Source of the DNA: an uncultured delta proteobacterium
Lineage (GTDB): Bacteria > Desulfobacterota > Binatia > DP-6
Length of the DNA: 64,000 nucleotides
NCBI GenBank assembly: GCA_963815115.1
Contig: CAWFFN010000005.1
Coordinates: forward strand, 96,001 to 160,000
Reading direction: 5' to 3'
Below the pieces are notes generated by a model that worked only from the letters and a program-made list of their open reading frames with translations, did not search any database and was not told the origin of the DNA. Below, piece by piece: positions 12,580-38,418 of the stretch (its first letter is position 1; each line of letters begins with the position of its first letter). The position numbers and the translations under genes are program-made.

Positions 12580-13783
12580 TCAGGCGCGTCCGAACGGCGC
12601 GCGCCCCGCATAGCGGGCCGCGCTGCCGAGCTCCTCCTCGATGCGGGCGAGCTGGTTGTACTTGGCGACCCGCTCGCCCCTGCATGGAGCCCCGGTCTTG
12701 ATCTGTCCCGCGCCCGTCGCGACGGCGAGGTCGGCGATGAAATCGTCGGAGGTCTCACCGGAACGGTGGCTGATCACGGTGCCCCAGCCCGCGCCGCGCG
12801 CGGTCGCGATCGCGTCCAGCGTCTCGCTCAGCGAGCCGATCTGGTTCAGCTTGATGAGTGCCGCGTTGCCAACCCGATCGGCGATGGCCCGCCGGATGAT
12901 GTCGGGATTCGTCACCAGGATGTCGTCGCCGACGAGCTGTACGCTGCCGCCGACCGCCGCCGTAAGCCGCTGCCATCCGGCCCAGTCGTCTTCGGCCAGG
13001 CCGTCCTCGAGCGACCAGATCGGGAACTGTCGCAGCCAGGACTCCCATAGCGCGATCATCTCGTCGGTCGTGCGTCGCGTGCCCCCCGACTTTCGGAAGA
13101 CGTAGGCGCCGTCGGCATAGAGGCTGCTGGTCGCGGGGTCGAGCGCGATGGCGACATCGTCGCCCGGCCGCAGGCCCGTCTTCGTGATCGCCTCCAGGAT
13201 CGCTTACACCGCGTGGACGTCCTCTCCCAGGTTCGGGGCAAACCCGCCTTCGTCGCCGACGTAGTCGACTGGCCGCCCGCCTTCCAGCGTCGTCCGCAGC
13301 GCCTGTGAGGTCTCGGCTCCCAGGCGAAGCGCCTCGCGAAAGCTCGCCGCGCCGACGGGTGCGATCATGAACTCCTGGAGGTCGACGTCGTTGTCCGCGT
13401 GGAGCCCCGCCGTTCAGCACGTTGAACATCGGCACCGGCAGCAGCGCCGCGTCGGCGCCGCCGAGGCGGCGATGGAGCGGCACGCCTGACGACGCGGCCG
13501 CCGACCGTGCAACAGCAAGCGAGACGCCGAGGATAGCGTTCGCCCCAGGCGGCCCTTGTTCGGCGTGCCATCGAGAGCGCACAGCCGTGCATCGAGGGCT
13601 CGCTGGTTCGACGCGAGCGGTCGCCGTCGCGAAGCTCCACGGGCTCGCCGGTATCGGTGGACGCCCCCTGACGGGACGGCAGCACGCCCGAAGCTGCCGT
13701 CGTCCAGACGGACGTCCACTTCGACGTTGGGATTCCCGTGAATCGAGGATATCGCGGGCGTGAATGGAGGCGATGCCTGGCAT
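12580..13783 (-). pseudogene. eno: Degraded second enolase copy
   Basis: [56 protein letters not shown] spread over several frames. In-frame TAA near 13204 and an internal deletion near 13610. Confidence 0.9.
12590..12726. repeat. 137-bp direct repeat identical to 27798-27934 (3' ends of the two enolases)
   Basis: Base-by-base comparison by eye shows no mismatch; offset 15208 bp. Confidence 0.88.
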
Positions 13784-13829
13784 AGATCAATCCAGCGAAC
13801 GCCGCGGCGTCGCACCGACGAGCGGAAAT

Positions 13830-13922
13830 CAGTGCCCACACTCGGCGCTGGGCTATCTCACCCCGAGAGAGTTCGCGGACCAATTGTCGGCCTGCTGTAG
13901 GCAAAACAAGGGTCGCCCCACA
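13830..13922 (+). mobile_element. IS3-family remnant (transposase C-terminus and probable right end)
   Basis: Translates to [14 protein letters not shown], the IS3 integrase-core C-terminal motif. Followed by ...GGGTCGCCCCACA. Confidence 0.6.
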
Positions 13923-14010
13923 CTTCTTCGCACTTCAGTTCTTCGGCGGCACTGCGGTTCCCGCCAATCGCGAGAATGGCGCCCGGTCCTTCAGACCGAT
14001 AATCTGTTGG

Positions 14011-36738: not shown

Positions 36739-37106
36739 AGGGGGTTCTCTGGGTCGGCCTGGGCGGCTTTGTCGGGGCCAACGCCCGCTACCTGCTCGCG
36801 ACCTGGATCGCGGGACGCGCGGGCACCACCTTCCCGCTCGGGACGTTGGTCATCAACCTCTCGGGCAGCTTCGTCCTGGGCCTGCTCGTCGGTGTGCTCG
36901 AGAATCACGTCACTCCGCCGACGCTGCGGCTGGCGCTCGCCACCGGATTCCTCGGCGCCTATACCACGTTCTCGACGTTCACCTACGAGACGATTCGACT
37001 GGTCGAGGAAGGCAGCGTCCTGCTGGCGGCGCTCAACGCCGGCGGGAGCCTCGCACTCGGGCTCGGCGCCGTCTTCGGCGGCCTCGGTCTCGGGAGAGCC
37101 CTGTGA
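36735..37106 (+). CDS. crcB: Fluoride channel Fluc/CrcB
   Basis: GGFVGANARY, FPLGTLVINLSGSF, TGFLGAYTTFSTF signature. GTG overlaps the dynamin TGA. Confidence 0.95.
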   Translation: MKGVLWVGLGGFVGANARYLLATWIAGRAGTTFPLGTLVINLSGSFVLGLLVGVLENHVTPPTLRLALATGFLGAYTTFSTFTYETIRLVEEGSVLLAALNAGGSLALGLGAVFGGLGLGRAL

Positions 37107-37137
37107 CGCCCGGCCCACGGCACGAGGAGGTATCGTC

Positions 37138-38418
37138 ATGCGCGGCAAACGGATGACCATCTTCATCGACGAGACCGACCATTGGGGGCACCGGTCGCTG
37201 TACCTCGCCATCCTCGAGCGCCTGAAGGCCGCCGGATGCGCCGGCGCCACGGCCGTCCGCGGCGTCGCCGGGTTCGGCCCGCACTCGCAGATCAAGACCG
37301 CACGTCTGGTCGACGTGGTGATGGCGCTGCCGATCGTGATCAGCGTGATCGACCTCCCTGACCGCATCGAGCGCTTCGCCGGCGAGGTGGCGGAGATGAT
37401 GTCGGGGGGGGTGGTCGTGCTGGAGGATGTCGAGGTCCACTTCTACTCCGCCGCCTTCCGTGGGGGCCTGCCCGACGTCGAGGTGGCCGACGTCATGTCC
37501 CGCGCCCCGGAATTCGTCACGCCGGACACGCCGCTGGTGGAAGTGGTCCGGCGGTTGCTCGAGCGCGACTACACGGTGCTGCCCGTGGTGGACCCGGAGC
37601 GCCGGGTGGTGGGAGTCATCGGCGACCAAGACCTGCTCGCCCGGGGCGTCATCAGCGAGAGCCTGCACATGCACCGGGCGACCGCTGAAATCCCGCCCGA
37701 CACGCTGCAGCGGCTCACGTCGAACGGCGGCGTGGTGCGCGACGTGATGACCGCACCGGCCACGACGGTGCAGGAATCCGCGCGCGTCCCCGAAGCCGCG
37801 CGGCTGATGCACGAGCGACATCTGAAGCGGCTGCCCGTCGTCGACGACGCGGGCCACCTGGTGGGCGTGGTCGGTCGGCTCGATATCCTGAGCAGCATCG
37901 CGGCCGGCTATACGCGCAGGACGGCCCCGCGCACCGCGGGGCTTCCACAGGAACATCGCACGGTGGGCGAGATCATGGAGCGCGGGGTTCCGACCGTGGC
38001 AGAGACGACGCCCCTCGGCGACGTGGTGGAGCGCCTGCTCGACTCGGCGGTCCACGAGGTGATCGTGGTCGACGCTGAGGGGCGGCCACTCGGCATCATC
38101 ACGGCCGCCAACGTCTTGGTGAGAGCGGACCCGGTGGAGCGGCCCGGCCTGCTCACCCAGCTGCGCAGCCGCTGGAACGCGGAGGCCAAGCGGCAGGTGC
38201 GCCGCGTGTACGGCCAGCGGGCGGCGGACGTGATGGCGTCGCCTGTGATCACCGTCCGCGACACCGACCCGGTGATGACGGCGCTCACGCTCTCGGCCAC
38301 GAAGCACGTGAAGCGTCCACCGGTCGTGGACGGCGAGGGGCGGCTCGTGGGGGTGGTGGGGCGACCGGCCCTGCTGGCGGCGTCGCTCGACGTGGACACC
38401 GGCGACGCGGAGAAATGA
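37138..38418 (+). CDS. DUF190 (PII-like) domain fused to two CBS pairs
   Basis: IFIDETDHW...AGATAVRGVAGFG...LPIVISVID, then four CBS motifs (VADVMS, LPVVD, VRDVMT, VGEIME, AADVMA). Confidence 0.88.
   Translation: MRGKRMTIFIDETDHWGHRSLYLAILERLKAAGCAGATAVRGVAGFGPHSQIKTARLVDVVMALPIVISVIDLPDRIERFAGEVAEMMSGGVVVLEDVEVHFYSAAFRGGLPDVEVADVMSRAPEFVTPDTPLVEVVRRLLERDYTVLPVVDPERRVVGVIGDQDLLARGVISESLHMHRATAEIPPDTLQRLTSNGGVVRDVMTAPATTVQESARVPEAARLMHERHLKRLPVVDDAGHLVGVVGRLDILSSIAAGYTRRTAPRTAGLPQEHRTVGEIMERGVPTVAETTPLGDVVERLLDSAVHEVIVVDAEGRPLGIITAANVLVRADPVERPGLLTQLRSRWNAEAKRQVRRVYGQRAADVMASPVITVRDTDPVMTALTLSATKHVKRPPVVDGEGRLVGVVGRPALLAASLDVDTGDAEK

Follow-up and report, generated by a model that had tools for sequence, protein, structure and literature searches.

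The fluoride riboswitch (the crcB motif, Rfam RF01734) is described, in the consulted parts of three accounts, as the head of a super-regulon whose downstream genes include crcB, Na+/H+ antiporters, enolase and universal stress proteins (USP) (PMC11139923, PMC7266159, PMC2864571). In Enterobacter cloacae FRM, according to the consulted part of its description, the genomic island GI3 carries a fluoride-riboswitch operon, ppaC-uspA-eno-gpmA-crcB-orf5249, for which resistance was shown experimentally (PMC5533749). Here, we describe a related locus in an uncultured delta proteobacterium (Binatia; DP-6), within a 64,000-nt stretch of contig CAWFFN010000005.1 (positions 96,001 to 160,000; hereafter the window). 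Four leaders related to the fluoride riboswitch lie within 16 kb of each other, on a block bounded by a repeat at a tRNA-Ala gene. We consider it likely that a 45.8-kb genomic island carries this region as its fluoride module, a partly decayed one in which riboswitches gate rows of genes. Fluoride riboswitches, most genes of the regulon and island-borne, riboswitch-controlled fluoride operons are already known kinds; the locus adds the number and differing integrity of its leaders and several gene families that are little studied in this setting.

Four fluoride aptamers within 16 kb

The entire window was searched with cmscan and Rfam 15, using permissive thresholds for positions 12000 to 40000. 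Three RNAs (RS1 to RS3) reached the RF01734 gathering score of 34 bits, and a fourth (RS4) did not (Table 1), with an E value of 0.08 for the 28 kb searched and 0.005 genome-wide. The full source genome (G000; 6.9 Mb in 12 contigs, of which C5 carries the window; other G numbers denote related genomes) holds five RF01734 matches. As four of these fall at this one locus, with the fifth (RS5) on contig C9, the clustering is far beyond chance. We also built a lineage covariance model, R1, from 29 aptamers of 61 related genomes, with RS4 absent from the seed. With filters off, R1 ranked the four RNAs above everything else in the 64 kb, where the next best site scored 11.6 bits. Judged by their scores and pairings, RS1, RS2 and RS3 are fluoride riboswitches. 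Because RS4 obtained 34.4 bits from a model built without it, against 11.6 bits for the next best site, its sequence marks it as a genuine but deviant homologue, damaged or at least atypical.

Helices P1 and P3 and the loop-tail pseudoknot can all form in RS1, RS2 and RS3 in both the Rfam and the R1 alignments. The pseudoknot pairs GGAGU with ACUCC in RS1 and GGGGU with ACCCC in RS4, while RS2 and RS3 pair GGGGU with ACUCC, including one G-U pair. In the 29 relatives, whose alignment is biased towards the structure because its sequences were found with the Rfam model, the central pseudoknot pair is GU in 11, AU in 8, GC in 8 and CG in 2, and pairing holds in 98.3% of pseudoknot cells. Over the full aptamer structure, 93.5% of cells are paired compared to 82.2% in shuffles; 10 pairs have changed on both sides, and none of the 500 shuffles or of the slid controls does as well. 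RS3 reads GGGCAUGGGGUGCGCCC and RS4 reads UUUGGAUGGGG, both departing from the GGCGAUG... consensus, and the P1 variant of RS3 is also present in G003, G007 and G020. The first-pass annotation of this DNA, made from the sequence alone, had called four fluoride RNAs sharing that consensus. RF01734 found all four within a few bases of where they had been placed, one of them below the gathering score, and the covariation claimed for the pseudoknot is borne out in RS1 to RS4 and in the relatives; the consensus itself fits RS1 and RS2 only.

RS2 and RS3 stand back to back, 129 nt apart, and a promoter-like site (TTGACA-N17-TTAGAG) lies just 5' of RS1. Back-to-back divergent pairs, approximately 90 to 125 nt apart, also occur at G017:C32 (L034, L035), at G044:C32 (L006, L027) and at L118. 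G017 has four switches in 27 kb, which head a dynamin-MFS unit, a DUF190-CBS-crcB-HEAT unit, a hydrogenlyase-like NADH-dehydrogenase row and an AAA/MutS-like pair. In the source genome, the fifth switch (C9:267757-268534; 51.7 bits) lies directly 3' of a PPK2 polyphosphate kinase gene and heads a lone NYN-like gene of 150 aa, followed on the opposite strand by a phosphoenolpyruvate carboxykinase gene.

Three gene rows

Genes were called from Pfam matches for 76 open reading frames (ORFs), NCBIfam matches for 12 proteins, codon-position GC (guanine plus cytosine) plots and tblastn searches with paralogues (Table 1). The first row, on the minus strand, runs from RS1 through sulfatase-like gene A and its paralogue B to an enolase remnant. 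The second, also on the minus strand, comprises RS2, a major facilitator superfamily (MFS) transporter, RS4, a CPA2 antiporter, a USP, a NYN-like protein, IlvD and enolase-2. The third, on the plus strand, comprises RS3, a dynamin-like GTPase, crcB and a DUF190 protein with four CBS domains. The four switches had been thought to head four units. All do point into genes; however, RS4 lies within the same-strand row of RS2, 69 nt past the MFS stop codon, and the arrangement is therefore one of three unit heads and one internal element. The known regulon classes (CrcB, enolase, Na+/H+ antiporter, USP and MFS) were all recovered by Pfam.

Table 1. Features of the window, with strand and the evidence for each
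Feature	Position	Strand	Evidence
RS1, canonical fluoride riboswitch aptamer	18832-18894	-	RF01734 55.8 bits; R1 61.2 bits
RS2, canonical fluoride riboswitch	34732-34801	-	RF01734 42.9 bits; R1 59.5 bits
RS3, fluoride riboswitch, lineage-specific P1 variant	34922-34992	+	RF01734 34.3 bits at 34931-34984; R1 53.4 bits
RS4, divergent fluoride-riboswitch homologue	33341-33406	-	RF01734 21.2 bits at 33341-33401, sub-gathering; R1 34.4 bits
Enolase-1 pseudogene	12580-13780	-	tblastn with enolase-2
Cys-rich sulfatase-like gene B, paralogue of A	14011-16289	-	Pfam; frame plot; translations; tblastn
Cys-rich secreted sulfatase-like gene A	16344-18733	-	Partial Pfam Sulfatase match; frame plot; tblastn with intact C7 paralogue
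Enolase-2, intact second copy	27788-29074	-	Pfam; TIGR01060 638.8 bits; start abuts IlvD stop
Second-copy dihydroxy-acid dehydratase IlvD	29071-30850	-	Split Pfam match; tblastn and DNA comparison
Stand-alone NYN-like protein	30804-31358	-	Pfam NYN 20.4 bits, below cut-off; 63% identical to C9 copy behind RS5
Universal stress protein (USP)	31490-31909	-	Pfam Usp 110.8 bits; abuts antiporter stop
CPA2-type Na+/H+ antiporter	31912-33150	-	Pfam Na_H_Exchanger; TIGR00932
MFS transporter	33475-34680	-	Pfam MFS_1; AGGAGG and ATG 52 nt behind RS2
Dynamin-like GTPase	35011-36738	+	Pfam Dynamin_N 85 bits (cut-off 27); first gene, 27 nt behind RS3
crcB (Fluc fluoride channel), single copy in island	36735-37106	+	TIGR00494 98.3 bits (cut-off 80.45); Pfam CRCB; overlaps dynamin stop
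DUF190 (PII-like) protein with four CBS domains	37138-38418	+	Pfam DUF190 and CBS x4
P-type ATPase split by frameshift, left part of island	1704-3637	+	E1-E2_ATPase profile divided over two ORFs, at position 71
Chromate transporter ChrA, further resistance module of island	25440-26840	+	Pfam Chromate_transp
Right copy of perfect 174-bp direct repeat	39444-39617 (C5:135444-135617)		blastn, 174/174 identical
tRNA-Ala (CGC), integration site	39573-39646	-	ARAGORN; Rfam tRNA; 3' 45 nt inside repeat

The dynamin-like GTPase keeps motifs G1 (GQFKRGKS), G3 (DTPG) and G4 (NKAD) intact, and its best solved match is IniA (PDB 6j72; E = 6.8e-16), over the first ~200 residues only; it fails the NCBIfam DynA equivalog (55 bits compared to a cut-off of 1600). 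An MFS homologue 71% identical to the one in the second row lies 3' of the dynamin gene in G017. From the N-termini of its homologues, the antiporter likely starts at 33111 (MEHITNVW...). The 78-codon frame behind RS4 was considered as a lost antiporter N-terminus and ruled out, five homologues sharing the MxxNxW... N-terminus of the ORF here. Enolase-2 shares 62% identity with its housekeeping counterpart on C9, and the island IlvD approximately 75 to 77% with the housekeeping copy.

The NYN-like protein scores 20.4 bits (island copy) and 21.0 bits compared to a Pfam PF01936 cut-off of 24.2 bits. A model of the C9 copy (pLDDT 88) has MARF1 NYN domains as its top PDB matches (TM 0.62), and the acidic residues are invariant across 26 sequences. 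The sulfatase-like proteins, of which the two in the first row are both secreted and Cys-rich, have partial Pfam Sulfatase matches of 34 to 58 bits. Type I sulfatases carry a C-x-P-x-R formylglycine motif; at this position, copy A and the C7 paralogue read C-F-P-S-L, without the Arg, and copy B reads C-Y-P-S-I. Gene A begins 99 nt behind RS1, with its own GAGGA ribosome-binding site. LPG_synthase_TM genes recur near fluoride-switch loci: at 21296-22711 in the window, at L037:422-1378 and 10276-11274 near the C9 switch, and at L034:7535-8473, just 5' of the switch-dynamin unit in G017.

A genomic island at tRNA-Ala

The island spans C5:89838-135617 (45.8 kb), so that its right end lies at window position 39617. 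Its right border is a copy of a perfect 174-bp repeat that contains the 3' part of tRNA-Ala(CGC), and its left counterpart, beyond the window, is at C5:89664-89837. When window positions 38400 to 58399 were compared with the same-genus genomes G001, G002 and G004, synteny (75 to 80% identity) was found only from approximately 39445 rightwards, ending within ~300 bp of the tRNA (approximately 39445 to 39760). In G001, the tRNA side continues without interruption into a homologue of C5:89505-89837, a segment that in G000 is 6.2 kb to the left of the window, and the 45.8-kb block is absent. The block had been proposed to be island-borne. Because a perfect repeat holds the tRNA 3' part and the block is missing at the syntenic site of G001, that proposal is supported by sequence comparison, with tRNA-Ala(CGC) as the integration site. 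GC content to the left of the tRNA is 0.64 to 0.72, lowest in the first 28 kb, compared to mostly 0.70 to 0.74 to the right.

A single crcB copy is present in each of the four same-genus genomes, compared to two in G000, one of them on the island; no RF01734 match was found in G001, G002 or G004 (95, 94 and 89% completeness). Beyond the fluoride genes, the island has arsenic-type, chromate (ChrA) and metal-ATPase modules, and its cargo includes two transposases, two low-molecular-weight phosphatase (ArsC-like) genes, an SBF/Acr3-like carrier, a PstS-like protein and methyltransferases. In the left half (window 1 to 11900; L192:5838-12000), the ArsC-like phosphatases, the Acr3-like carrier, methyltransferases and two transposases are accompanied by a TetR regulator, an acyltransferase-DUF2147 fusion, a glutathione S-transferase and the broken P-type ATPase. 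By its gene content, this half looks like mixed metal and metalloid resistance cargo.

Proposed mechanism and the status of RS4

We propose that, as cytoplasmic fluoride rises, an Mg-fluoride complex would lock the aptamer pseudoknot (loop GGNGU, tail ACNCC), which would free the ribosome-binding or start region from an alternative pairing with the tail and so turn translation on. Three canonical switches and one divergent copy would thereby gate three gene rows, each possibly an operon. Among the products, CrcB would export fluoride, the antiporter would defend pH and enolase-2 would serve as a spare enolase, with the dynamin-like GTPase, the DUF190-CBS protein and the NYN-like protein as further putative products of the response.

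Minimum-energy folds of the leaders, in which the alternative pairings are predictions, offer candidate partners for three of the tails. The RS3 tail GAUGACUCCUCG is predicted to pair with CGAGGACAUC, which is the ribosome-binding site of the dynamin gene and immediately precedes its ATG at 35011. The RS2 tail is predicted to pair with downstream GGCGGGAGAUCAU, with the MFS AUG in a second hairpin, and the RS4 tail GACCCCU with downstream AGGGGUC. In acidobacterial homologues of the antiporter unit, stems that resemble terminators are accompanied by U-runs, whereas the platforms here lack U-tracts. A promoter and terminator scan of 27000 to 39000 found sites no commoner than in shuffles, and no terminator behind the switches. 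We therefore favor translational ON switches, given the predicted pairings of tails with ribosome-binding regions and the lack of U-tract terminators.

Whether RS4 is itself a working switch, gating antiporter, USP, NYN-like, IlvD and enolase genes independently of RS2, is finely poised, and we place the chance a little below even. Its score under a lineage model that never included it is matched by a fully Watson-Crick pseudoknot, by a 7-bp alternative partner for its tail that encloses GGAG and AUG, and by a possible P1 of five pairs (CGGU-uug-G with CGCCG), for which a 3-nt bulge is required. Tandem same-strand switches also recur elsewhere, for example at L114, whose second switch immediately precedes antiporter and USP genes. 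However, RS4 falls short of the Rfam gathering score (21.2 compared to 34 bits), and the junction base before P3 is a G where an A is invariant in 29/29 relatives. The AUG right behind it opens only the 78-codon frame, which has no coding signal. Moreover, the antiporter start lies 190 to 230 nt further on with its own GGAGG, compared to approximately 50 to 125 nt behind the switch in five homologues. The slightly better supported reading is that RS4 is a divergent copy within a row headed by RS2.

Broken genes and decay of the module

The breaks in the genes of the module had gone unnoticed. Enolase-1 is read in three frames; it has at least two frameshifts, and a nonsense codon falls where the alignment is good. 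Its 3' end is shared with enolase-2 (300 nt at 90% identity, 12568-12867 compared to 27776-28075; last 57 residues identical), while outside this segment the proteins are ~59% identical. As the 3' ends are far more alike than the rest of the proteins, their sequences look like the product of gene conversion. In IlvD, the frame shifts once, near 30425 and next to a G5 run; its larger piece scores 613 bits compared to a family cut-off of 644, and no single reading frame covers its full length. Sulfatase-like gene A is shifted at 18269, at a C4 run where the frame needs C5, and gene B within 15345-15396, outside any homopolymer. Breaks are concentrated in the island: all four sulfatase-like paralogues outside it, the housekeeping enolase and the housekeeping ilvD are intact in G000, and the 24.5 kb to the right of the tRNA showed no split domain. 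As assembled, the fluoride module is thus partly decayed, and the RS1 row holds broken genes only. In G003, a same-genus dynamin homologue (L036:9998-11717, contig C1) aligns in two frames (residues 158-517 and 535-732) and may also be frameshifted.

The single frameshifts in IlvD, sulfatase-like genes A and B and the P-type ATPase might alternatively be assembly errors, which would leave a regulon intact except for enolase-1. Each of these four genes has one break only, two of the breaks sit at or beside short homopolymer runs, and 12 contigs of up to 1.9 Mb suggest a long-read assembly. We nevertheless regard this as unlikely: the break in gene B lies outside homopolymers, enolase-1 demonstrates that real decay does occur here, the flank right of the tRNA showed no split genes and six paralogous or housekeeping copies elsewhere in the genome are all intact. 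Contigs of the public run X1 are also 100% identical to the window over much of the region with no indel listed, a weak point since coverage at the frameshift sites is not visible and X1 may be the source sample. Partial decay of the module is therefore our preferred reading of the breaks.

Several observations weigh against interpreting the region as a partly decayed, switch-gated fluoride module of one island. RS4 is below the Rfam threshold, and the RS1 leader showed no clear pairing of tail and ribosome-binding site in the folds. The rightmost 10 kb of the module has near-core GC, and the island is therefore a mosaic. Among the ORFs scanned, none inside the island encodes an intact integrase; a truncated Phage_integrase fragment (155 aa) sits just beyond the left repeat. 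As set out above, the single frameshifts may be assembly errors. Finally, a search of public runs found no RNA sequencing run containing the stretch; no run of any kind shares half of its words, the best share being 0.22 in a soil metagenome.

Comparative linkage of candidate regulon members

In 24 switch-proximal ORFs (23 from relatives and the C9 copy of G000), the first gene encodes a Na+/H+ antiporter in 6, a Dynamin_N protein in 4, DUF190 with or without CBS in 4 and CrcB in 3. The rest comprise one MFS, one NADH-dehydrogenase-like and one NYN-like gene and four without a Pfam match, one of which (G007) is also NYN-like. For the dynamin-like GTPase, we scanned a 4-kb flank at the best 80 of at least 579 relatives in a species-genome collection. 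A same-strand upstream switch was present at 50/80 loci, in 22 of them within 450 nt; the remaining 30 had no switch at E values up to 0.01, and some of these have short flanks. Record titles place the loci in Acidobacteriota, Binatia, Methylomirabilota, Verrucomicrobiia, Gemmatimonadaceae and others. Across the 80 loci we counted crcB at 40, DUF190 at 38, antiporter at 16, USP at 11, enolase at 9 and MFS at 9, with IlvD, NYN-like and sulfatase-like genes at none. The order of switch, dynamin, crcB and DUF190-CBS is the same in G003. This conserved neighborhood gives strong comparative support for the dynamin-like GTPase and for DUF190-CBS as probable regulon members.

For the NYN-like protein, linkage across genomes appears occasional. 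It is found in 25/25 genomes of the family, mostly as a longer core protein, and short copies lie behind switches at six loci in five family genomes, at distances of 265 nt (G000 C9), 55 nt (G007), 1.9 kb (G006), 3.0 kb (G014) and 7.6 kb (G017), with the island as the sixth. Among metagenome loci, 3/80 had a strong upstream switch; a phylum-wide sample (2/301 genomes) is uninformative because most of it is distant from G000. The core protein (L125:1024-2508; G000:C12) appears longer, with a NYN-like core, an Arg-rich linker and a C-terminal domain, and the switch-linked copies correspond to the core alone.

All the other genes in the rows had been put forward as fluoride-response candidates. 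This stands for the dynamin-like GTPase and DUF190-CBS and, more loosely, for the NYN-like protein. That both sulfatase-like proteins and IlvD are true, selected components of the response is improbable: gene A sits close behind the best-scoring switch, two of its paralogues lie beside the genome's other crcB on C12, and IlvD falls between NYN-like and enolase genes with its stop abutting the enolase start, yet a switch within 1.5 kb was found at only 1/30 sulfatase-like loci (11/25 family genomes), the island locus itself, the C12 crcB is convergent with the paralogue rather than co-oriented, IlvD is missing from the 80 dynamin loci and from three regions of G017 and G003, and all three genes are broken here as assembled. 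The C12 locus (C12:472000-489999; L038) has this second crcB without a detected switch, tail to tail with one sulfatase-like paralogue. Nearby are a second such paralogue, an FG-GAP protein 66% identical to that of the island, a CLC-type channel, a Fur-family gene and a sigma-54 two-component pair. Sigma-54 activators in the genome also spoke against an actinobacterial source, which had been considered.

Implications

We tentatively suggest, while leaning against it as a whole, that fluoride defense moves between soil bacteria as a mobile multi-riboswitch cassette whose unstudied members aid survival, above all the dynamin-like GTPase at the head of the crcB operon and more rarely a stand-alone NYN-like, Mg-dependent nuclease domain. 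If so, their contribution could be membrane repair or remodelling around the channel or, alternatively, the replacement or protection of Mg-dependent enzymes that Mg-fluoride complexes poison. In that case, the broken genes and damaged RS4 would represent a cassette pruned to its useful core after transfer. The locus is compact and rich, with four related leaders of differing integrity, three gene rows and one dated insertion. It adds an independent case for the link between the fluoride switch and the bacterial dynamin family, for which no publication was found, and a hint of a stand-alone NYN-like protein behind fluoride switches. Our literature search found no paper joining the fluoride riboswitch or crcB with dynamin, or the riboswitch with DUF190; Baker et al. 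2012 and its supplement were outside its coverage and may list some of these families. The locus is also a warning that genes behind a switch are not always selected regulon members, since the sulfatase-like genes and IlvD are without comparative support and broken here. According to the consulted part of one account, fluoride tolerance limits the microbial handling of organofluorine compounds (PMC11139923), and unrecognised tolerance genes are therefore of practical interest.

Comparison with known systems

Like other tRNA-integrated genomic islands, this one has a repeat containing the tRNA 3' end, is absent in a close relative and combines lower GC, transposases and resistance cargo; it differs in having no intact integrase inside and in a repeat that is unusually long at 174 bp. 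The dynamin-like GTPase shares the Dynamin_N domain and intact motifs with bacterial dynamin-like proteins (IniA, 6j72; Campylobacter DLP1/2, 5owv; Nostoc BDLP, 2j68). The RNAs have the P1, the 8-nt loop pseudoknotted with the 3' tail and the P3 of the RF01734 super-regulon, with crcB, antiporter, enolase and USP genes downstream. In contrast to that super-regulon as covered in the consulted parts of the cited accounts, the locus has four copies in 16 kb, two of them (RS3 and RS4) off consensus; its platforms look translational, and a dynamin-like GTPase and sulfatase-like proteins, neither of which those parts mention, are among the products of its first gated genes. The closest described counterpart is GI3 of E. 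cloacae FRM. Resistance was demonstrated for that island, whereas the one here is described from sequence. Both are islands with a switch-controlled channel, a fluoride-inhibited enzyme (enolase) and a USP. Where GI3, as far as the consulted part describes it, has one switch and one operon, the island described here has three or four switches, three gene rows, extra families and broken genes.

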